DNA of 64,000 nt. Source: a virus. Location: IMG/VR virus record IMGVR_UViG_3300032020_000002. One strand, given 5' to 3'. The notes beneath the pieces were generated by a model. It ran no database searches, was not told the DNA's origin, and saw only the letters and a program-made list of their open reading frames with translations. Shown here piece after piece: positions 4,969 through 39,091 of the stretch (position 1 is its first letter; each line of letters starts with the position of its first letter). The translations under genes and the position numbers were made by a program.

Positions 4969-5255
4969 TAATTGACAAACTTTTCGACAGGGAAGGCATT
5001 ATTGACATAGTTATCAAATGCCTAAAAGCCAAAACAAAGGGGGAAAGCCTCGATATTATGAAGGAAGAGACAAAAAAATTCACAGAAAGCGAAAAAATAG
5101 AAATGGCTTATATTATTGGCGTTATACACGGGGCAGACGAGGGGGTATATAACAGAAAAGAAAGCGAAGAATTCCTGAAAAACTTGAACCTTCGCATGAA
5201 GTTGGGTGAATTAAAGGAAAGTATGAATGAAAAAAACAAATGCTGTGGAGGGTGA
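4965..5255 (+). CDS. hypothetical small protein
   Basis: ATGA overlap. Confidence 0.5.
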   Translation: MIIDKLFDREGIIDIVIKCLKAKTKGESLDIMKEETKKFTESEKIEMAYIIGVIHGADEGVYNRKESEEFLKNLNLRMKLGELKESMNEKNKCCGG

Positions 5256-5261
5256 AACAAC

Positions 5262-5360
5262 ATGAAAAAAAGAAAAACAGAAGAACGGGAAATTGTAAGG
5301 TGTGGCTTTTGCGGAACTGAACATTATATAGAGGATGATTGTCCGAGTTGCGGGTGGTAA
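5262..5360 (+). CDS. tiny zinc-ribbon protein (CGFCGT...CPSCG)
   Basis: hand-translated 32 aa. Confidence 0.35.
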   Translation: MKKRKTEEREIVRCGFCGTEHYIEDDCPSCGW

Positions 5361-5361
5361 A

Positions 5362-5577
5362 ATGAAAAAAATAAATCCCAATTGCGATTATATTGTCGCT
5401 TCCAGAGAGAATTACGGCAAATGTTTAAAGAGGAAGTGCATCTACTGTAAAAACCCAGTCTATCCTATGGATAAAACAGTTGTGTATGCAAAGAAAACAC
5501 TAAAAAATCCAAGAAGAAAAAGTTTATATGCTTTGAGTGCTTCACGCAACGCTATGACGAAAAGAAACACAAATTAA
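5362..5577 (+). CDS. small Cys-containing protein
   Basis: ATG within track ORF 5335. Confidence 0.4.
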   Translation: MKKINPNCDYIVASRENYGKCLKRKCIYCKNPVYPMDKTVVYAKKTLKNPRRKSLYALSASRNAMTKRNTN

Positions 5578-5696
5578 TGATAACACCAGAAACAGTTAAA
5601 ATGTTCGGCATATCAAAAAGCGAAATCAGGAAATTCACAAAAATATTGGTCGAAGCTGAAAAAGAAGAAAAAAAGATAATAGCAATAGCGGGATGA
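5577..5696 (+). CDS. tiny hypothetical protein
   Basis: hand-translated 39 aa. Confidence 0.3.
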   Translation: MITPETVKMFGISKSEIRKFTKILVEAEKEEKKIIAIAG

Positions 5697-5741
5697 TTAT
5701 TATCAAGGTGAGCGAGAAAACCCACAGCCTTTAGGCGTGGG

Positions 5742-6872
5742 ATGAGAGCGAACAGGTGGAATATGCAAAGAGCAATAAGATTGAAGATAGAAAATCAGGA
5801 TGTGAAGGATACGGTTGAGCAGTATTTCAAAGCATACTGCTTCTGCATAGACAAAGGAACGGAGATGCACACAGCGAACAAGAAGAAAATCCATAATGCA
5901 ACATATTTCCCGTTACGCAAGATATATCCAACCATTCCATCAGCACTCTTGCAGACCATCCGAGATGTGGCTTGCGAAAACCTCAAGGCTGTCAAACTCA
6001 AGGTTAAGCCAATTCCGAAGAACAAATTCATTCGCTATGACAGACGGACATTCTCATATAAGAACGGCATAGTGAGTCTCTCCACGATAAATGGAAGACG
6101 GAAATTCCAGATAAGTCTTCCTAAGTTCGCAGAGAGATACAACTCATGGGACAGCAAAGCGGGAACAGTCACTTTGCGAGATGGTCAGTTGTGGCTGAAT
6201 ATAATCTTCAACAAGGAAAACCAAATCAAAAGTCCAGATACATTCATAGGCATAGACAGAGGGATAAACAAGATAGCAGTCTGCTCTGATAACTCGTTCT
6301 ACAACTCGAAACAACTGAAGTCGGTCAAGGGAAGATACCAATTCCTCAAGGCAAAACTTCAGTCAAAAGGCACAAAATCTGCCAAGATACACCTGAAACA
6401 TTTGTCTGGCAGAGAGAGACGGTTCGTTAGGGATGTGAACCATGTAATCAGCAAGCAGATAGTGAAGAAGCCATATGACTGCTTCGTTCTGGAAGACCTG
6501 AAGAATATACCGAGGAACAAAGGCAGGCGGTTCAACAGAAAACTTGGTGGATGGTCGTATTTCCAACTCGGCAATTTCGTGGATTACAAATCCGAAGAAC
6601 TTGGAAAGACAACTATCAAAGAAAATCCAAGGCACACAAGCCAGATGTGTTCCAGATGCGGACATATAGAGAGGTTGAACAGAAAGGGCAGTCGGTTCAA
6701 ATGCAAAAAGTGTGGCTTTGAACTGGATGCGGATTTGAACGCATCGAGGAACATCGCCAATTTGGGTATATCCCGATTTGGCAGGCTGAATGTCATCCAG
6801 CCAATCGTGTCGGTTAACCAAAATGAATACAAGCCAGATGCAAGCCCACACTCTTCAGAGGTGGGTAGATGA
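5742..6872 (+). CDS. tnpB: TnpB (OrfB) RuvC-like RNA-guided nuclease with C-terminal zinc finger
   Basis: RuvC-I GIDRGINK, RuvC-II VLEDL, zinc finger CSRCGH...CKKCGF, RuvC-III DADLNASRNIA. Confidence 0.85.
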   Translation: MRANRWNMQRAIRLKIENQDVKDTVEQYFKAYCFCIDKGTEMHTANKKKIHNATYFPLRKIYPTIPSALLQTIRDVACENLKAVKLKVKPIPKNKFIRYDRRTFSYKNGIVSLSTINGRRKFQISLPKFAERYNSWDSKAGTVTLRDGQLWLNIIFNKENQIKSPDTFIGIDRGINKIAVCSDNSFYNSKQLKSVKGRYQFLKAKLQSKGTKSAKIHLKHLSGRERRFVRDVNHVISKQIVKKPYDCFVLEDLKNIPRNKGRRFNRKLGGWSYFQLGNFVDYKSEELGKTTIKENPRHTSQMCSRCGHIERLNRKGSRFKCKKCGFELDADLNASRNIANLGISRFGRLNVIQPIVSVNQNEYKPDASPHSSEVGR

Positions 6873-7734: not shown

Positions 7735-7911
7735 ATGATAATTGGAATGATTTGCGAGAAATGTAAAGAAAGAATGCATCAGTTTGAAATCACAAACCTC
7801 ACTCCGAGCATATTCGATGAAATGGTGCGGGAAGTGGTGTTTGGGCATGGAAGCGACCAGAAATGCAAAAACAGGGTGAAATTATGGATAGTGGAACAAA
7901 AATGGAAATAG
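7735..7911 (+). CDS. small zinc-finger protein (CEKCKERMH)
   Basis: ATG within track ORF 7690. Confidence 0.4.
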   Translation: MIIGMICEKCKERMHQFEITNLTPSIFDEMVREVVFGHGSDQKCKNRVKLWIVEQKWK

Positions 7912-8111
7912 CAACCTGTGACAACTGCGGTCATAAACAGGATGCAAGAAAGGGTTTTGAGTGCGAGAAATGCGGAGGGCAAACATTCACGGAAAAAGAA
8001 GAGAAAGAGCTTATAGCAGAAAAGCCGTCAAAGTTTGTTCCCTTAAACAAAAACGAGGATAAATGTGGCAAGAACAGACATCTCAAACAAAGAATACATG
8101 AGGGAATATAA
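7863..8111 (+). CDS. small zinc-ribbon protein (CDNCGH...CEKCGG)
   Basis: ORF track. Confidence 0.45.
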   Translation: MQKQGEIMDSGTKMEIATCDNCGHKQDARKGFECEKCGGQTFTEKEEKELIAEKPSKFVPLNKNEDKCGKNRHLKQRIHEGI

Positions 8112-8206
8112 CTCAAAACCAGAAACAAAGTCAAAGGCAAAAGAAAAGTATGGAAAGCGTAAACAACGCAAAAAGGAAATCTGGTTAAAGGTCAGGGGAT
8201 GGTAAA

Positions 8207-8512
8207 ATGCCTGAAGAAAAGCAAAGCAATCTGATAGGTGAATACCTACCGCAATATTCAAGCTATAAGGCGATAGTAGGCAAGGTGCTGAAGGAATGCC
8301 CAGAAACAAGGGGAAATGACAGCCTGCTCATCAAAAAGGTCGTGGAACACTGCTTCAAATACGAACTCAACCCGCCAAGCTATGAGACAATAACGAGGGC
8401 GAGAAGGAAATTCAACGAGGAAGGGCGATTTTTACCAGATAACCAGACAATTGAGCAAAGGAGAAAAAAGGAGCAGTTTTTCAGGGAAGCAGGCAAAGAG
8501 GGACTACTTTAA
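8207..8512 (+). CDS. hypothetical protein
   Basis: ORF track. Confidence 0.45.
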   Translation: MPEEKQSNLIGEYLPQYSSYKAIVGKVLKECPETRGNDSLLIKKVVEHCFKYELNPPSYETITRARRKFNEEGRFLPDNQTIEQRRKKEQFFREAGKEGLL

Positions 8513-8550
8513 TAGTAAGGTATTTAAACCTTTTCACTAAAATAATAGTT

Positions 8551-8937
8551 ATGTGTCCAAAAACTGCGTGTTCAGTTGTCGGATGCCAAGAAATACACTA
8601 CTCTCATGGCTATTGCAGAAAACACTGGGCAAAAAACAAATATGATACAGACCCCGTTTTCAGGGAGGCAAGAAAGAAGTCATCAAGGAAATGTTCCAAA
8701 AAATATTACTACAAGATGCTGGAAGAAGACCCCAAATGGAATACGAAGAGACAAAAGAAATACAGGAAAATGCACAAAGACAAATTCAATTACATACAGT
8801 GCAGGTATTATTTCAGAAGACTGACTTGCGAGCAAAGGCTGAAAATGATAACCGATGTGATGAAGGAGGAACACTATGGTAAAAACATCATACCAATGCC
8901 TGCTCAAAAGCAAGCAGTTGAGCAAGAGCGAGCTTGA
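8551..8937 (+). CDS. Cys/His zinc-binding protein (CSVVGCQEIHYSHGYCRKHW; HNH-associated-like motif)
   Basis: motif resembles zinc knuckle found N-terminal in phage HNH proteins. Confidence 0.4.
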   Translation: MCPKTACSVVGCQEIHYSHGYCRKHWAKNKYDTDPVFREARKKSSRKCSKKYYYKMLEEDPKWNTKRQKKYRKMHKDKFNYIQCRYYFRRLTCEQRLKMITDVMKEEHYGKNIIPMPAQKQAVEQERA

Positions 8938-9095
8938 ACTGCACCATTGCTTCAAAAGGCAAAAGGGAAGGAACAAGGGGAGAGTCTGCAAGTATTTGGT
9001 GAACATATGATTATGAATGGAAAAAACATTGTCATCTTGGCAGTCGCAAGAAAGGTAATCTACGATATGATAAAGAAGGCGGAAAGGGGGAAAAC

Positions 9096-9323
9096 ATGAA
9101 AGAGGATTTAATATTATGCGATGAATGCAGAGATAGGATATACAATGCAGAATGTCATGTATTACAGATGAGATTCATCGTCACAGAGAACATGGATGAA
9201 GGTGTCCAATATCATTTTTGTGGGGCAGAATGCCTTAAACATTTCATCGCTAAAAAAGAATTTGAATCCAGATTTTACAGATTCGGCAAGCCCAAAACAG
9301 ACAATGCGGAGGGGAAAACATGA
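9096..9323 (+). CDS. small zinc-finger protein
   Basis: CDECRD...HFCGAECLKH. Confidence 0.45.
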   Translation: MKEDLILCDECRDRIYNAECHVLQMRFIVTENMDEGVQYHFCGAECLKHFIAKKEFESRFYRFGKPKTDNAEGKT

Positions 9324-9514
9324 AAATAGGCATAGTCGGCAACAGGACAGGCTGGACATACGAAGAAGTGAAAAAGCAACTCGATACACTCGGAGTTTAC
9401 AAGACAGATATGCTCATTAGCCACAACATAAGTCTTGAATCGAAGCAGAAATACCTCGACAAGTTTTCTTCTTTGGAAAAAACATTAAGCGATATTGAGG
9501 AGAGATACAAATGA
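9320..9514 (+). CDS. hypothetical small protein
   Basis: ATGA overlap. Confidence 0.45.
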   Translation: MKIGIVGNRTGWTYEEVKKQLDTLGVYKTDMLISHNISLESKQKYLDKFSSLEKTLSDIEERYK

Positions 9515-9852
9515 TGCCCAAAATACGCTTTTCGCACAAATATTACAAAATGCCGACACAGGAAGCAATAGAAAAGGGAAAGCACACCTTAATCGGCATC
9601 CAGATACATGAAGATATTTACAAGCTCCCAGAGGAGTTCCTTCATTATGACGCATCTTTCTGGAACGGCAAGGAGACGGAAGAATACCCGATACCGCTTG
9701 GCAAAGGCATTGTGATTTTCATTTTTACTTGTTATGTAGCGGAAAATAAGGTTTGGACGAGCATCAGAAGGTGGACACCTTGGAAGGAGAAATATTATCG
9801 TGACTTGAAAGGAAAAGAAGTTGAAATCGTCATAGAGAAGGGGAAGGGATGA
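9511..9852 (+). CDS. hypothetical protein
   Basis: ATGA overlap. Confidence 0.45.
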   Translation: MMPKIRFSHKYYKMPTQEAIEKGKHTLIGIQIHEDIYKLPEEFLHYDASFWNGKETEEYPIPLGKGIVIFIFTCYVAENKVWTSIRRWTPWKEKYYRDLKGKEVEIVIEKGKG

Positions 9853-10471: not shown

Positions 10472-11044
10472 ATGGACGAAGGTGGGGAACACATGAGCTA
10501 TATGGCAGTTTATTTGATAATTGTTGGTATAATAGGGCTTTTGTCAATTCCTATTATTGAGTGTTGCAACCCATCGTGGTTAGTCACGCTTATCGGTGTC
10601 CTTTCAACGATTGCGTTTGGTTTGGGATTATACCGATTGATAGTTATCGGAGCAAACAGAGGCGAAGGGATGAACAAGAGTGGAATAAGGCACGATTCTT
10701 ATTGTTCCAGATTCAGTAGTTCCTTCTCTTCTTGCCTATCCGATTTAAAGTGGAAGTGGTTTCTTTGGAGAACATTCAGGTCATGGGAACATCATAATAA
10801 AAGCGTGTATAAAAAATACTGCAAAAAGGGATTCCACCAGTTAAACAGAATGGTGCAAATTTTGTGGCTTCCAAACAAAAAAGAATACAAAGTCGAATAT
10901 CTGAAATGCCCCTATTGCAACTACCTGTTTTTCTCAACAGTTGAAGATAAGAGGCTATATCTTGCTTTAACTGGAACGCACAGAAAGAAGATGTTGCAAG
11001 CGTTTGATAAAATAAGGAAACAGAGGAGAGTTCGGAATGTTTGA
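10472..11044 (+). CDS. membrane-anchored zinc-finger protein
   Basis: N-terminal TM; CPYCNYLF motif. Confidence 0.45.
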   Translation: MDEGGEHMSYMAVYLIIVGIIGLLSIPIIECCNPSWLVTLIGVLSTIAFGLGLYRLIVIGANRGEGMNKSGIRHDSYCSRFSSSFSSCLSDLKWKWFLWRTFRSWEHHNKSVYKKYCKKGFHQLNRMVQILWLPNKKEYKVEYLKCPYCNYLFFSTVEDKRLYLALTGTHRKKMLQAFDKIRKQRRVRNV

Positions 11045-12101
11045 AAGAAAACTTGTCACAATCAGAAAAGTGTCAAAAATCCTGCCCATAGAAAATGCAG
11101 ATTTGATAGAACTTGCCCTGATAGACGGGTGGCAGTGCGTAGTAAAAAAGGGCGAATTCAAAACAGGGGCTTTTGGGTTGTTTTTCGAGATTGATAGCTT
11201 CCTTCCCATTGAAGAAAGATACGAATTCTTGAGAAAATCAAGCTATAAAAAGTTGCCTGACGGCTCTGAAGGTTTCAGGTTGAAAACAGTAAAATTAAAA
11301 AGAAAATTAAGTCAGGGATTGCTCCTTCCTTTAAGCCTGTTCCCCGAAATCAAAAAACCCGAAGTTGACAAGGATTACGCTGAAATATTGAAAGTAGTAA
11401 AATATGAGCCACCGTTACCTGCCAATTTGAGAGGAATCGCAAAGGGGCTGTTTCCGTCATTCATTAAAAAATCAGACCAAGAAAGGATACAGAACTTGCC
11501 CGAATTTTTTGTAATCCATAAGGACATGGAGTTTGAAATGACAGAAAAAGAGGATGGAAGCTCTGCCACCTATTACTGTCTGGATGGGGCATTCGGATAC
11601 TGCTCAAGAAACCTCGAATTGAAAGAAGAGGGAGAAAACACATACCTCAAAATAGCACAGGAACTCGGCTTAAAAGAAACCTTTTCGCAACTCACAGGAA
11701 AATTTTCGCAAAGCAAAGGAAATTTCGCAATACAGGGAGAAATAGTTGGAGAGGGAATCAACAAAAATCACTTGAAAATAAAAGGTGCGGAATTCCATGT
11801 GTTCGACATATACGACATTGACACGCAAAGATTACTATTGCCCGAAGAAAGGATGTTTTTGATTAAACACATGAACAATCCTAAAATCAAGCACATCCCA
11901 ATCCTGAAGTCAAGCGTCAAAATATTCCAGATTTGCAAAACAATGCAGGAATTACTCGATTATGCAAAAGGGAAATCATTTTTCAACCCAAGCACAGAAA
12001 GAGAGGGCTTGGTTTTCAAATCACTCAAATTTGATGATAATGGTCAGGTAATTTCCTTCAAGGTCGTCAATAATGATTACTTGCTGAAATCTGGGGAATA
12101 A
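11037..12101 (+). CDS. ATP-dependent RNA ligase-like nucleotidyltransferase
   Basis: motif I KEDGS (KxDG) in MTEKEDGSSATYY; size and layout like Rnl-family ligases. Confidence 0.6.
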   Translation: MFERKLVTIRKVSKILPIENADLIELALIDGWQCVVKKGEFKTGAFGLFFEIDSFLPIEERYEFLRKSSYKKLPDGSEGFRLKTVKLKRKLSQGLLLPLSLFPEIKKPEVDKDYAEILKVVKYEPPLPANLRGIAKGLFPSFIKKSDQERIQNLPEFFVIHKDMEFEMTEKEDGSSATYYCLDGAFGYCSRNLELKEEGENTYLKIAQELGLKETFSQLTGKFSQSKGNFAIQGEIVGEGINKNHLKIKGAEFHVFDIYDIDTQRLLLPEERMFLIKHMNNPKIKHIPILKSSVKIFQICKTMQELLDYAKGKSFFNPSTEREGLVFKSLKFDDNGQVISFKVVNNDYLLKSGE

Positions 12102-15450: not shown

Positions 15451-16032
15451 ATGGCGAGAATACCAAAGCAAAGGGTGAGATATGATATTTTCTGGAAAAT
15501 CGGAATCGTCAGAATGTGGTATTCGGTAAGTCCCAAAACGGACACGCCAATCCCCTTCTGCGAAATGCGTTGCATAATTTTTGCTCGCAGGAAGCCCAGA
15601 ACTATAACGGAGAAATTGCTTCTGATTGACAAGCTCAAAAAGAAGCTGGACACACTGGTTTTACTGACAACCACAGGCTTTCAGGATGCGGAAATAGGTG
15701 GGTTCATATATGGTGATGACAGCCCATTAAGGGAAGTAGAAGTGAAGGTAAAGAAAAAGCAAATCGGCAAGCTGATGGTGGAGATAAACGGACATGAAGC
15801 AGAACCGCTTGCTGTGATAAAAGCATACAGGATGGTCAATAAAGAGCCAGTGCAGACATACATCTTCAAGACAATCCCAAGACCGATTGAGCTTTATGAG
15901 AAATACGGAACGATTTACAGGTATATGGCGTTTTTTGATAAATTTGGGTTGCTCCGTGCCGATTATGATGAACAACAAATTAGAGAAATTGAAAAAAAGG
16001 TCTTTGCGTCATTTTTAGGTGCTAAACCATGA
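15451..16032 (+). CDS. hypothetical protein; homing-endonuclease target gene (ends ...YDEQQIREIEKKVFASFLGAKP)
   Basis: C-terminal 22 aa duplicated at end of next ORF. Confidence 0.55.
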   Translation: MARIPKQRVRYDIFWKIGIVRMWYSVSPKTDTPIPFCEMRCIIFARRKPRTITEKLLLIDKLKKKLDTLVLLTTTGFQDAEIGGFIYGDDSPLREVEVKVKKKQIGKLMVEINGHEAEPLAVIKAYRMVNKEPVQTYIFKTIPRPIELYEKYGTIYRYMAFFDKFGLLRADYDEQQIREIEKKVFASFLGAKP

Positions 16033-17117
16033 AAAAGGATTCACATCATAAACCAGCCAGCATAGAAAAAATGAGAATATCTCATATAGGTAAAAGGAAG
16101 TCACCAGAATCAATTAAAAATCAATCGGAAAGTTTAAAGGAATTTTATAAAACACACCAACATTGGCAAAAAGGTGTCCCAAGACCGCAATGGGTAAGGG
16201 AAAAAATAAGTAAAACTGAAAAAGGTCGTCCAAGCCCAATGAAAGGAAGGCATCATACAGAAGAAACTAAAAGGAAAATAGGGATTGCATTTAAAGGTAA
16301 AACTGGATTTAAACATTCTGAAGAAAATAAAGAGAAAATGAGTTTATCCGCTAATAAAAAATTCCAAAATGGGTATATACATCCAATGAAAGGCAAAAAA
16401 CATACCAGAGAGAGTAAATTAAAAATGTCAATTTCACAAAAGAAATTATATGTCGAAGATAAAAGGAAAATTTCCAAAGAAACACAATTTAAAAAGGGAC
16501 AAAAAAAACTACCCCATAAAATTGATTGCCAATGCTTCTTTTGCACGGGTAAGCCTCCACCTTGGACTGGTAAAACATTAGAAGAAATTGTCGGAGTTGA
16601 AAGAGCAAAACAAATAAGATTAAAACAATCAGAACGATTAAAAAATGAATATAAAAATGGCAAAAGGATTAGCCCACTTAAAAAATTAAGAAACACACCA
16701 GAATTTTCTCAAAAAATCATAAAAGGCATTGTTAAAAAACCGAATAAATGTGAACAGAAGTTAATTAACATAATTAATGATAATAGTTTGCCATACAAAT
16801 ATGTTGGAAATGGAAATTTCATGGTAGGGAACAGATGCCCAGATTTTATCAATTCAAATGGCTCTAAAAAAATCATTGAATTATTTGGCAGAACATATCA
16901 TTCTCCTCGTCATTCGTTTTTCAAAATATCTTATAATCATACAGAAAATGGAACAAAGGAATACTACAAAAATTTTGGTTATTCATGTTTAGTAATTTGG
17001 GATTATGAATTAAAAGAAAGAGCAATCGTTATTAACAAAATAAAAGATTATGATGAATTTGAAATTCGCAAATTGGAAAAGCAGGTTTTCGCATCATTCT
17101 TGGGGGCGAAGCCATGA
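16029..17117 (+). CDS. free-standing homing endonuclease-like protein with NUMOD3 repeats and C-terminal nuclease-like domain; carries recoded copy of upstream gene's C-terminus
   Basis: tandem KxGxxHSEETKxKIS NUMOD3-like motifs; ends YDEFEIRKLEKQVFASFLGAKP. Confidence 0.6.
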   Translation: MKKDSHHKPASIEKMRISHIGKRKSPESIKNQSESLKEFYKTHQHWQKGVPRPQWVREKISKTEKGRPSPMKGRHHTEETKRKIGIAFKGKTGFKHSEENKEKMSLSANKKFQNGYIHPMKGKKHTRESKLKMSISQKKLYVEDKRKISKETQFKKGQKKLPHKIDCQCFFCTGKPPPWTGKTLEEIVGVERAKQIRLKQSERLKNEYKNGKRISPLKKLRNTPEFSQKIIKGIVKKPNKCEQKLINIINDNSLPYKYVGNGNFMVGNRCPDFINSNGSKKIIELFGRTYHSPRHSFFKISYNHTENGTKEYYKNFGYSCLVIWDYELKERAIVINKIKDYDEFEIRKLEKQVFASFLGAKP

Positions 17118-33565: not shown

Positions 33566-34057
33566 TTACCTACCCCCAGTTCGCCTACTACATTGGTTAA
33601 AGGCATTTTCATCACCTCCTCTTTTGTATGCAAGAAATTTACCTTGAAAATTCCTCTCCCGCCTTTTTGCTATTATACTATTTTTCATCGCTGTCTTGAC
33701 ATACCATTCTGGTTTAGTTACTCTTCCTGTCATCAATTTTCTCATTTTTTCTGTATATTCTTTGCTTTTCATGTAATCCTTACCATTTGGAAATTGCACT
33801 TTTTGGTGGCATTTTCTACAAAGATTTTGTAAATTTTCAAGTCTGTTATCCCAAACATTATGATTTTTATGATGTGTGTCCACTTTTCCCCCTTTCCAAA
33901 ATTTCCCACACGAAGAACACCTTTTACCAATAAGGTTTCTTCCTATTATATTAGCATATGTTTTTACAGTTGTTTCTTTATAATTTTTATTGTAAATTTT
34001 GGGTTCTGGTGTCCAATTCGGATTATAATAATAATGTCCACTTCTCATAATAATCAT
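33566..34057 (-). CDS. HNH endonuclease (free-standing homing-type)
   Basis: CSSCG...DTHHKNHNVWDNRLENLQNLCRKCH. Confidence 0.7.
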   Translation of the reverse strand: MIIMRSGHYYYNPNWTPEPKIYNKNYKETTVKTYANIIGRNLIGKRCSSCGKFWKGGKVDTHHKNHNVWDNRLENLQNLCRKCHQKVQFPNGKDYMKSKEYTEKMRKLMTGRVTKPEWYVKTAMKNSIIAKRRERNFQGKFLAYKRGGDENAFNQCSRRTGGR

Positions 34058-34778: not shown

Positions 34779-37299
34779 TTACCTTCTTACCTCTATTTTA
34801 AAACCTCTTTCTGTTATAGCGAAAAAGCGTTTACCATAAGATTCGTATTCTTTTTCTGTTATCAAAATAATATGCTCCCCTTTCTTTTCTCCATGAAAAA
34901 GCCTTCCCATCCTCTGTCCTTCCTGCCTGCGACTCCCAAAAAGGAAATCAATTTCAATGACCCTTTCTATATCTGGAAGGCTTAACCCCTCGTCTCCCAC
35001 TCTACTCACTACGGTAACATCGCTTTTATTGATTATTTCAAGCCTGTCCTTTGTCTGTCCGTAAACGAACGGTATCTCAAATTTCTTTGATAGGCTTTTA
35101 CCTAAATTTATTTTGTCGCAGAACACTATGGTCTTCTTTTCCTGCTGTAAAAGCTCCGCAAGTTTGCTTTCTTTTGCTTTATAATCACTCAATATATACA
35201 ATATCACATCGGGGACTTCTATTATCCCTTCTTCTATCAGGCTATCCCATGATATTCCTATGGGGAATCCTGTGAGAGCAAAAATATAATTCTCCCTCTG
35301 GTCTTCCCTAAAAGGCGAGCCTGAATTATGCGTTAAAACTTTGTTTGCAAAAAAGTTATGATTGTCGGCAATTTCCAAGTCGTAAAATGTTCTATTTTCT
35401 TTTCTTACTCTTACTTTTTCAATTCCGATGACTATGCCCTTTTCAATACGCATGAACACCACTCCTATTATGACAAGAGAAACACAGTGTTGTGCCATTG
35501 TTTACATCTAATCTGAATTCGGGATATTTTGAGAATAATTTTTTATGATGAGCATGAAGGTTTTTTTTACTACCACAACTTGTGCAGGTGAAATTGTCAT
35601 GTTTGAATACATCTCTTCTCCATTTCTTGTATTCCAAAGAATTAGAATATTCCTTTCTCCAGTAAGATACTCCTCCTTGCCAGTTCGGATTAAGTTGTCC
35701 TTTCTTACCATACATTCCATTGTTTTTTCCGCTTAGACAGCCTGTAATTTTTAATGTAGCTAATCTTTTTGCCATTATTCTCTCGTCTTTCCAAAGAGTG
35801 TGTCCTTTTTTGAATTCCGTATTAGGAGAATATCTTTTTCCTTTATGTATTTTTGATAATTTATTCCGTGTTTTTCTGTCATGGGTTTTGCCAAAAAACG
35901 GATTCTTCTCTCCGACAAGTTTCCCTTTCAGTGATTTCGATATATTTTTTCTATGGTTTTCGGTAAATTCCCTTCCCTTCAATGAGTGACTTATCTTGTC
36001 TCCAGCGTATTTTGCTGGATTGTTCAAAGTGCAATGCGGGTGAACCAATATCGTAGTTTCATCTCCTTCTATTAGCTCACTTGCCTTTTTGTATTTACCT
36101 GAAACAAAGAACTCGTGGTCTGGTGAGCAGAGTATTTCTTTTATTCCAAATTTTGTTTTTATTTTAACTTTCAGTATTTCGTTAACTTCCCTCTTGTAAT
36201 AATCGAGTATAGGTTTAGCTTCTATCTGTCCTGTTCCATGATTGAAAGACAGAACCTTCACTGGCAATTTATTATCAACGATTTCACTTATTTTCATCAC
36301 ACTTCCATCTTCCAGTGTTACCGTAGTTCTTTTATGTAAACATAATCCAATCCTGTATCGTGTGTTTAAGGTCGCAAATCGTGAGAACTGGTTGGCTGGT
36401 AAGTGATGGACTTCATCAAAAATCACTAAAGCCCATTCCTTGTCCCTCACCTTATCAAAAGAGTGATATGTAACGATAGATGTTTCCCCTTCCCTCAAAT
36501 CGGTATATTCTTTTATTCTTTCTGTCCATTGCTCTACAAGCGTCACTGTCGGGACAACTATGAGCTTATTGCCCTTTATTGAGGATAGTGCCTTCAGACC
36601 AAAAAATGTTTTGCCTGCGCTGAATGCCCAAAAAACTCCAGTCGCACCAGTCTCAAGGAATTTATCCCACGCCTCTTTCTGATAATCCCTCAAAGTGAAT
36701 TTTACTGGTCTCTCAAGAAGGTCTTCAGTTTGGACTGGTTGTTTCATAAAAGGCAATATTCCGTTATCTATAAGCTCCGCAAGTAGCTGAAATTCATATC
36801 CCTTTTTGATTTTTATTTTGTCTGTCCCTTCCCTTCTGCTTAAAAATTTACCAAATTTATTCCAAGCATCTTCCTGATGCTCTTTTCCTGTAAGTAGCAT
36901 TCCATCGAACACCTGTAAGGGCAATTTCATTTTGCCTTTGAATTTCCCTTCCAATTCTGCTGGCAATTCACCGAGCCAGTTCATGTATTTGTTTATCTTG
37001 AAAATGTTATAGGTGTCCGTTGAGAAATCGAGCCACCCCAAATTCATTCGTATAAATTTCGGAACAGGAACATACCATTCTTCGTGTTTGCCAGTAGGTA
37101 TAAGGACATAAGGTTTGTTAAGGAAAGGCATGAAGTTGTCTTGGTCAATCTTTATCCTCATTTTGTCTGATATTTCCGATAATTTTTCCGCATTGGCTTT
37201 TTGTGATACTTCCAACTCTGTCTTCATCTCCTCTATCCTTTTGGAATAATCCTGCGATATTTGTCGCAATTCCTTCAATTTCTCTTCATTGACCATTTC
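34779..37299 (-). CDS. SF2 (DEAH-type) helicase interrupted by an intein; single frameshift inside the intein HNH domain near 35445-35500
   Basis: Walker A GVFWAFSAGKT, motif II DEVHH, motif III RIGL|intein|SGSP, motif VI QRMGRLFH in downstream ORF. Confidence 0.7.
35325..36342 (-). mobile_element. intein (Hint domain + NUMOD3-like + HNH endonuclease) inserted in helicase motif III; HNH frameshifted
   Basis: starts CLHKRTTVTLEDG, block B SPDHEF, ends VLTHN|S; HNH LCFSCHN. Confidence 0.65.
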
Positions 37300-37313
37300 A
37301 TCACCATCAAAAA

Positions 37314-37670
37314 TCAAAAACCGCCAAAAAGGTCTTTGGTCGTCTTTGCCCCTCCCTTCATGGCGCTTATCTGCTGTAACCCTCCAAGTATGAGCAGGAA
37401 TTCCTTCCTTCCGAGCCTGAACCTTGACACCCTTAACAACAGGAAATGCCTCACCCACTGCCTTATGAGGTCGCTATCCAGATAATCGGCATATGATAAC
37501 ATAGCAGACATACCGAATATCTCTTCTGGTGTCAAATCAGAAACGGTGTGCAGTCTTTCATCTGCTGGCTTCATAAGCTCAAGAGACACCTTTGCAAGTG
37601 CCTCATCGAGACCTACTATTCCCATCTCTTCCGATTCCTTTTTCAATTTTTGCCTCATCTCAAGCGTCAT
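37314..37670 (-). CDS. hypothetical protein
   Basis: ORF track. Confidence 0.45.
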   Translation of the reverse strand: MTLEMRQKLKKESEEMGIVGLDEALAKVSLELMKPADERLHTVSDLTPEEIFGMSAMLSYADYLDSDLIRQWVRHFLLLRVSRFRLGRKEFLLILGGLQQISAMKGGAKTTKDLFGGF

Positions 37671-38592: not shown

Positions 38593-38796
38593 ATGGCAGT
38601 AGCAGAAGCAGTTAAGGACAAGATAGTTTCCGTTTTGGGACTTATCGTGGTTCTTATCGCTGTAGCACAGATGCTTCCCACTTTGAAGACAGGTCTCGCC
38701 AGCATCACACCCGATGTCCCTATACTATCGTTCACGCTGATAGGGCTTCTGGTCGGTATTGGGCTGATAATCTTCGTTGTGGAAGCTGTGTTTTAA
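38593..38796 (+). CDS. small two-helix hydrophobic protein (archaeal-virus capsid-like), paralog A
   Basis: 67 aa; ~85% identical to 38888..39091. Confidence 0.6.
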   Translation: MAVAEAVKDKIVSVLGLIVVLIAVAQMLPTLKTGLASITPDVPILSFTLIGLLVGIGLIIFVVEAVF

Positions 38797-38887: not shown

Positions 38888-39091
38888 ATGGCAGTAGCAG
38901 AAGCAGTAAAAGATAAGATTGTGTCCGTATTGGGTCTCATCGTAGTCCTGATTGCGGTAGCACAGATGCTTCCGACCCTGAAAGATGGTTTAGCGGTAAT
39001 AACACCAGATGTCCCCATTTTGAGCTTCGGGCTGATTGGGATGCTGGTCGGTATTGGGCTAATCATCTTCGTTGTCGAAGCGGTATTCTAA
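38888..39091 (+). CDS. small two-helix hydrophobic protein, paralog B
   Basis: tandem duplicate; SD GAGAGGAAAAAC upstream. Confidence 0.6.
   Translation: MAVAEAVKDKIVSVLGLIVVLIAVAQMLPTLKDGLAVITPDVPILSFGLIGMLVGIGLIIFVVEAVF

Follow-up and report, generated by a model that had tools for sequence, protein, structure and literature searches.

Split inteins, fractured genes and the helicase locus

Cyanobacterial DnaE and Nanoarchaeum PolB split inteins are made as separate polypeptides, an N-terminal part (IntN) of ~100–120 amino acids (aa) and a C-terminal part (IntC) of ~35–45 aa. Split inteins are also found in fractured genes; the gene halves are adjacent and co-oriented, and in 15 loci the 3′-end of an endonuclease gene has been described as overlapping the start of the IntC open reading frame (ORF) by 6–69 bp (Dassa et al., 2009, NAR 37:2560, PMC2677866). 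In the model proposed for these loci, both the stop codon and a downstream start codon come from the endonuclease gene that invades, while fracturing by HNH-type endonucleases and partial fusion (step IIIa) were predicted but not observed (PMC2677866). In phage Aeh1, as recounted in the same paper, nrdA is split by the HNH endonuclease gene mobE, and its halves assemble non-covalently with no intein involved (Friedrich/Gibb and Edgell, in PMC2677866). Here we describe a helicase gene in a 64,000-nucleotide (nt) stretch of viral DNA (IMG/VR record IMGVR_UViG_3300032020_000002; the whole stretch is hereafter called the window) that is interrupted by an intein spread over two overlapping ORFs. 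An earlier note had read the same locus as a helicase–intein gene with a frameshifted endonuclease. The two-ORF layout is most likely a conserved design and not a frameshift error, and comparison with related loci makes it quite probable that it encodes a natural split intein that acts by trans-splicing, as in fractured genes, with its homing endonuclease kept on IntN.

The locus resembles the fractured genes that carry NrdJ-1, gp41-1 and IMPDH-1 in its adjacent co-oriented halves, its viral setting and its split at the canonical endonuclease-insertion point, with an overlap of 11 nt where theirs are 6–69 bp. In those loci, however, a third, free-standing ORF encodes the endonuclease, which is of the GIY-YIG or Vsr-like type, whereas in the window no free-standing endonuclease ORF lies between the overlapping halves and an HNH/NUMOD3 endonuclease is fused to IntN, giving two ORFs. 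The host gene also differs, being an XPB-like helicase of an archaeal-type element. As in canonical contiguous HNH or LAGLIDADG inteins, the endonuclease is located between HINT blocks B and F, and homing is implied by presence/absence polymorphism, but the endonuclease–IntC junction is out of frame and consists of a stop codon, a Shine-Dalgarno sequence and a start codon. The chemistry of Cys1 and His-Asn is shared with the DnaE and PolB split inteins, whose halves lie at distant loci and lack an endonuclease, unlike the window halves, which overlap in one operon and include an IntN with an intact endonuclease. With Aeh1, as far as the account in PMC2677866 goes, the locus shares the breaking of an essential DNA-metabolism gene by an HNH-family gene into two co-transcribed pieces, the downstream one being overlapped; it differs in that the break lies inside an intein able to religate the protein. 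No description of a natural split intein with an endonuclease kept on one half was found in the literature searched, the coverage of which was incomplete.

Two overlapping ORFs encode the helicase and the intein

All coordinates are positions in the window, and all helicase and intein features lie on the minus strand. The interrupted gene encodes an SF2 XPB/Rad25-like helicase with a ResIII/DEAD N-lobe, an ERCC3_RAD25_C/Helicase_C C-lobe and motifs I–VI (Pfam), whose intein-free homologues are 499 aa long and up to 98% identical. The upstream ORF (ORF1; 35443..37296, stop codon TGA at 35445–35443) encodes an N-precursor made of the helicase N-half, IntN and a NUMOD3/HNH endonuclease. The start kept among relatives is the ATG at 37296 (MVNEEK), while gene callers pick a TTG at 37317 within an open frame that spans 35443..37458. 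The N-extein (36343..37296; 318 aa; Pfam ResIII) holds motif I (Walker A, FSAGKTF), motif Ia and motif II (FDEVHH) and ends in ...YRIGL, the first half of motif III, its boundary being set by alignment to the intein-free contig L005. IntN (36016..36342; 109 aa) begins with Cys1 (CLHKR...), contains the block B His (CSPDHEF) and ends in ...HPHCTLNNP. The 190-aa homing endonuclease module (35446..36015) follows in frame, with no stop or start codon in between, and the fusion junction NNPAK is kept in the diverged contig L001. Pfam matches on ORF1 comprise ResIII, the N part of Intein_splicing/PT-HINT, NUMOD3 (~35854–35976, E 6e-7) and a complete HNH domain (35461–35586, E 3.5e-6; positions 1–44 of 47, residues 625–666 of 671) with the residue pattern CxxC...HH...N...CxxCH, which agrees with the NUMOD/HNH endonuclease that had been recognised earlier from the letters.

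The downstream ORF (ORF2; 34779..35453, stop codon at 34781–34779) encodes a C-precursor of Met-IntC and the helicase C-half. Its conserved start is the ATG at 35453–35451 (MRIEKG), rather than an upstream ATG at 35498 (open frame 34779..35498). The start codon overlaps the stop codon of ORF1 by 11 nt (ATGcgtatTGA, 35443..35453), so that ORF2 is in the +1 frame relative to ORF1, and a Shine-Dalgarno-like AGGAGtGGTG (35457..35466) lies 4–13 nt upstream of the ATG, within the final endonuclease codons. IntC (35325..35453; 43 aa), reading MRIEKG...YDLEIADNHNFFANKVLTHN, contains blocks F and G and the terminal His-Asn, and is supported by a match to Pfam Intein_splicing (positions 122–155 of 155) and by alignment to the IntC of NrdJ-1. 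The ORF2 frame continues through ...NHNFFANKVLTHN/SGSPF (a slash marks a splice junction; in another rendering MRIEKGIVIGIEKVRVRKENRTFYDLEIADNHNFFANKVLTHN/SGSPFRED...) into the 181-aa C-extein (34782..35324), which starts with Ser+1 and the second half of motif III (SGSPFRED) and carries motifs IV–VI, with matches to ERCC3_RAD25_C and Helicase_C up to 34779 and with the intein-free allele as reference. GGAG or GAGG precedes 14 of the 71 window ORFs, compared with a background of 5%, and 4-nt stop/start overlaps are common in this genome; the arrangement of ORF1 and ORF2 therefore fits its normal operon style.

Both splice junctions are fixed exactly by the 98% identical intein-free allele (P0004/L005), which reads RIGLSGSPF (site sequence GGATTGAGT/GGCTCGCC) where the window reads RIGL/C...HN/SGSPF. 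The boundaries first proposed for the intein, from the Cys of RIGL/CLHKR to the Asn before SGSPF, match this allele. The earlier note was likewise right that motifs IV–VI lie in the frame 34779..35498, downstream of the intein, and that the precursor cannot be translated in a single frame. Its placing of motifs I and II in the frame 35443..37458 also stands; motif III does not belong there with them, as it is the splice junction itself (GL/SGSP). Nor does the frame change fall inside the HNH motif, as the note had it. It lies 5 codons past the end of the complete HNH domain, at the natural C-terminus of the endonuclease family, and the endonuclease is not frameshifted, its ORF being complete.

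The residues expected of a class 1 intein are present: Cys1 (CLHKR), the block B His (CSPDH), the block F Asp (YDLEIADNHNF) and the THN/S junction. The closest solved intein is NrdJ-1 (8ubs, E 2e-14), and the Met at the split point of the NrdJ-1 IntC aligns with the Met of ORF2, which corresponds to the canonical split between blocks B and F. As the endonuclease–IntC junction is out of frame, with its stop, Shine-Dalgarno and start conserved, the intein must assemble from two chains. We infer initiation of ORF2, trans-splicing and endonuclease activity from this conservation and from the homology to NrdJ-1. One mRNA would carry both overlapping ORFs, ORF1 giving rise to the fusion of helicase N-half, IntN and endonuclease. 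Translation of ORF2, probably coupled to that of ORF1, would start at the Shine-Dalgarno sequence and ATG within the final codons of the endonuclease and yield Met-IntC with the helicase C-half. IntN and IntC would then pair non-covalently into one HINT fold and trans-splice by means of Cys1, the block B His, His-Asn and Ser+1, joining ...YRIGL to SGSPFRED... and thereby restoring motif III (GL-SGSP) in a 499-aa helicase. The released two-chain intein would carry the HNH endonuclease and may promote homing into intein-free alleles.

The layout is found in independent copies and in diverged lineages

The 1045-nt intein region is identical base for base in the window, in L002 (Logan, SRR9651192) and in L003 (ENA, ERZ27247851), and 7 contigs, which come from several samples and pipelines, encode the exact ORF1 protein. 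The ORF2 protein and a JGI copy of ORF1 were likewise found in the sequence collection. A sequencing or assembly error of one extra base had been put forward as one cause of the offset. An A8 run does occur nearby (35561–35568), yet it lies upstream of the junction and the frame is open through it. Because the region is base-identical across assemblies from different pipelines and samples, and the layout recurs in unrelated samples and lineages, such an error has virtually no chance of being the explanation.

The order N-extein–IntN–endonuclease, then stop and overlap, then Met-IntC–C-extein is found in at least five diverged lineages (L001, L080, L081, L082 and L083). L080–L083 were found by a search with ORF2, which turned up further ORFs beginning with Met-IntC. 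Their C-exteins are just 46–57% identical to that of the window, and in all of these contigs the upstream ORF encodes the helicase N-half, IntN and an endonuclease and overlaps the Met-IntC ORF. The overlap is 11 nt in L080 and L083 and 8 nt in L082, all with an offset of +1, while it is 7 nt in L081 and 4 nt (ATGA) in the JGI contig L001, both with an offset of +2. A Shine-Dalgarno motif (GGAGG, AGGAG or GGTGA) precedes the start by 5–10 nt in every split relative; the upstream sequence is GGAGG in L080 and L082, AGGTGA in L083, where the start is TTG, and GGTAGGAGG in L081. An initiation codon at the IntC start (ATG, or TTG in L083) occurs only where an ORF must begin, and the Met is missing in the contiguous relative P0127 and in L045, in which the endonuclease is fused to IntC. 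Both in the window and in its split relatives, IntN and IntC thus lie on separate ORFs with their own stop and start, as in natural split inteins. Among the relatives retrieved from 5.8 billion proteins, no single chain with IntN, endonuclease and IntC was found.

Window and L001 share 99.4% DNA identity in the N-extein and only 66% in IntN, 65% in the endonuclease and 74% in IntC. Nonsynonymous and synonymous divergence (pN/pS) is 0.24/0.74 for IntN, 0.28/0.80 for the endonuclease and 0.16/0.69 for IntC, so that synonymous sites are near saturation (pS 0.69–0.80, pN 0.16–0.28). IntN, endonuclease and IntC alike are under purifying selection, and the omega of the C-extein is about 0.07. Cys1, the block B His, the block F Asp and the HN/S junction are invariant across all lineages in the alignment. 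This invariance bears on the possibility that the two halves of the helicase stay separate products and are brought together only non-covalently by the intein halves, with no peptide bond formed, as in Aeh1 NrdA. Split genes that work in the absence of splicing are known beside HNH endonuclease genes, judging by what PMC2677866 relates of Aeh1 nrdA, and the splicing chemistry proposed here is itself deduced. We nonetheless regard an unspliced complex as improbable, since Cys1, the block B His, His-Asn and Ser+1 are invariant across lineages at 46–57% identity and such a complex would leave motif III interrupted by ~340 residues.

Programmed +1 ribosomal frameshifting or bypassing at 35443–35500, which the earlier note had also considered, would yield a single cis-splicing precursor. 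The ORFs do overlap, and the Shine-Dalgarno-like sequence before the stop codon superficially resembles the RF2 frameshift site. UAU-UGA, however, is a poor +1 slip site. The relatives would require +1 in some cases and +2/−1 in others, with overlaps of 4, 7, 8 or 11 nt and no common slippery motif, and in L001 the ORF2 frame has a TAG 4 codons before the ATG, which leaves hardly any room for a shift. No significant RNA structure was detected in the three junctions folded (z = −0.4, −0.7 and +0.5), which also gives no support to a regulatory hairpin like those of the loci of Dassa et al. (2009). With neither a conserved slippery sequence, nor a common direction, nor a stimulatory structure, we rejected a programmed frameshift site as very unlikely.

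Several features of the relatives were noted in passing. In L081 (3235–5007) the NNPAK fusion junction and NUMOD-like repeats are still there in the endonuclease, but its C-terminal domain is not HNH; this domain has a PD-(D/E)xK-like motif (IPDAIAI...AIELEHK) and no Pfam match, which suggests a swap of the nuclease domain. In L001, helicase motif VI, encoded by ORF2 (7872–9566), is interrupted by another intein, which is contiguous and ~340 aa long (FLFG/CYDD...WSGN/SRRQ), so the L001 helicase would need one trans- and one cis-splicing event; an insertion of ~386 aa occurs at the same motif VI residue in a Bathyarchaeota metagenome-assembled genome (MAG; L070). Two helicase homologues of 859–863 aa (P0075 and P0079) have a LAGLIDADG intein in motif II (FDE/C...THN/CHH). 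Counting motifs II, III and VI, inteins have entered this helicase family at no fewer than three sites. Directly upstream of the L001 helicase gene, and overlapping its start, is a free-standing 285-aa LAGLIDADG_3 ORF (5159–6016) that is absent from the window.

Alleles at the insertion site

Within syntenic contigs, the same site is empty (L005), occupied by the split intein with an intact endonuclease (window, L002 and L003, and in diverged version L001) or occupied by endonuclease-deleted forms (L004 and L049), a presence/absence pattern as expected of a mobile element. One of the deleted forms is a contiguous intein without the HNH domain (P0144; L049/L050), which differs by a 328-nt deletion between AAAAG repeats. 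The other is a contiguous 155-aa mini-intein (P0002; L004) with a 553-nt deletion at an AG microhomology, and its IntN and IntC are 96% and 93% identical to those of the window. Both deletions are of length 3n+1 and hence exactly cancel the +1 offset. The most economical interpretation is that loss of the endonuclease turned the split form into the contiguous ones, although a contiguous parent outside the sequences found, differing by one base inside the deleted segment, could conceivably have been their source.

At the insertion site itself, L005 and the intein-bearing alleles differ by a cluster of synonymous changes in the first ~40 nt of the C-extein (around 35285–35324; Ser AGT vs TCA, Arg CGT vs AGG, CAA vs CAG, AGA vs AGG, GAA vs GAG). 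Co-conversion could have left such a cluster, or it could make the target resistant to cleavage.

Not all of the evidence favours a trans-splicing split intein. The split allele is invariant in the window's own lineage, all of its copies being identical, so that its persistence there can be argued only from other lineages. Both endonuclease-less sister alleles are contiguous, showing that contiguity is viable too. With 7 nt separating AGGAG from ATG the intein would be contiguous, whereas the spacer is 8 nt in the window and 6 nt in L001, each 1 nt off, which makes independent frameshifts from a contiguous ancestor formally possible. The strong opposite net charges of IntN and IntC that are seen in some split inteins are not evident here. 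Finally, an AlphaFold2 single-sequence model of joined IntN and IntC reached a pLDDT of only 57, too low to be informative.

The spacer that is exactly 1 nt too long, the identity of all copies of the window allele and the existence of contiguous derivatives are also what would be cited for a recent, real frameshift that broke a formerly contiguous HNH intein, leaving a locus in decay from which the helicase C-half is no longer made. Such decay, which the earlier note had raised for the homing endonuclease, has in our view only a small probability. Both ORFs are intact, and the place where IntC conservedly begins has a Shine-Dalgarno sequence and an ATG. Five diverged lineages share the layout, their overlaps differing in length, and purifying selection acts on the intein parts, the endonuclease among them, and on the C-extein. 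Moreover, no contiguous full-length form was among the relatives retrieved from 5.8 billion proteins, and two independent 3n+1 deletions restore the frame, as expected from a parent that was already +1. A natural split intein accounts better for these observations.

Endonuclease relatives and the mirror form

The mirror image of the window layout was found in four contigs (L045–L048), in which a distant SF2 helicase is interrupted at the identical motif III site (RLGL/C...HN/SATP). Here ORF1 ends just past a 100-aa IntN, and ORF2, which overlaps it by 11 nt behind a GGTGA, encodes a Zn-ribbon/HNH endonuclease (43% identical to that of the window) in frame with IntC and the helicase C-half. The endonuclease has further relatives in the form of free-standing NUMOD3 plus HNH ORFs of 200–400 aa, which end 6–30 aa past the HNH domain. 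The free-standing relatives and the mirror form together fit the gene-breaking model of Dassa et al. (2009), in which a mini-intein is entered by a free-standing endonuclease gene and one flank may later become fused (step IIIa).

A metagenome scan with an IntN plus endonuclease profile returned free-standing endonuclease relatives and unrelated inteins and no close allele; a scan of IMG/VR gave distant intein and endonuclease relatives only (40% identity or less); and no match to the region was obtained by BLASTN among 50,697 phage records.

A related Zn-ribbon/HNH endonuclease in a 537-aa protein (P0126) runs in frame into the Met start of a NAD-dependent epimerase, and is thus an endonuclease ORF without a stop codon, fused to the downstream gene. 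A related contiguous mini-intein, with 41% identity to IntN and ending in ...DIEVADNHNFFANGVLTHN/C, interrupts RNA ligase homologues (P0127 and P0135), and the window has its own RNA ligase gene (11037–12101; PHA02142 OB-fold plus RNA_ligase), which is intein-free.

Two further endonuclease-like ORFs in the window were considered as local donors of the intein endonuclease, and neither is a close relative, leaving a local donor unsupported. The ORF at 16029–17117 (+) encodes 362 aa with NUMOD3 repeats, weak matches to PHROG homing endonucleases and no recognised nuclease domain, and resembles the intein endonuclease in the NUMOD repeats only. The ORF at 33566–34057 (−) is a free-standing HNH endonuclease gene of 163 aa, located four genes downstream from the helicase gene. 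L002 and L049 contain it, the syntenic L005 and L004 do not, and from this patchy presence it is probably another mobile endonuclease gene.

Genomic context

Few of the neighbouring genes could be classified, searches of PHROGs and Pfam on them returning almost nothing. The window genes with a family assignment include ParB_N, RNA ligase, a TnpB-like gene and Band 7, alongside large proteins without a family match, and a tRNA search found none. The TnpB/Cas12f-like ORF (5742–6872, +; OrfB_IS605 plus a Cas12f1-like TNB domain) represents an IS200/IS605-type element. All syntenic contigs have kept, beside the helicase operon, two tandem, very hydrophobic 67-aa paralogues (38593–38796 and 38888–39091, +) without a Pfam or PHROG match, which could be virion or membrane proteins. 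Most of the helicase relatives at 50–60% identity are from Bathyarchaeia MAGs; Nitrososphaerota and Methanomethyliaceae account for others, and some of the contigs are Mb-scale. From these helicase relatives, on which its assignment depends, the element is probably an archaeal virus or integrative element.

Implications for intein evolution

The prevailing view is that split inteins arise when endonuclease genes invade inteins, and that bifunctional inteins arise by in-frame fusion. The half-fused intermediates predicted by Dassa et al. (2009; step IIIa) are shown by this locus and its relatives in both polarities, and the half-fused form is conserved over deep divergence. At a single site, related syntenic contigs hold empty, split, endonuclease-deleted and mini-intein alleles. 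For annotation, the locus is a caution that what looks like a frameshift in an intein or endonuclease gene may in fact belong to a working pair of genes. For protein engineering, it adds new candidates to the split inteins that are related to NrdJ-1 (Cys1/Ser+1).

We tentatively suggest, with somewhat less than even confidence, that half-fused split inteins form a stable, hitherto undescribed class, in which a free-standing HNH gene colonised a mini-intein and became fused either to IntN (the window family) or to IntC (L045), while keeping its own stop, Shine-Dalgarno sequence and start on the other side. If such a class exists, the active homing enzyme would be a non-covalent two-chain intein complex. 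Living populations would then document how inteins come to acquire endonuclease domains, and also the reverse route, from a split to a contiguous mini-intein by means of frame-restoring deletions.

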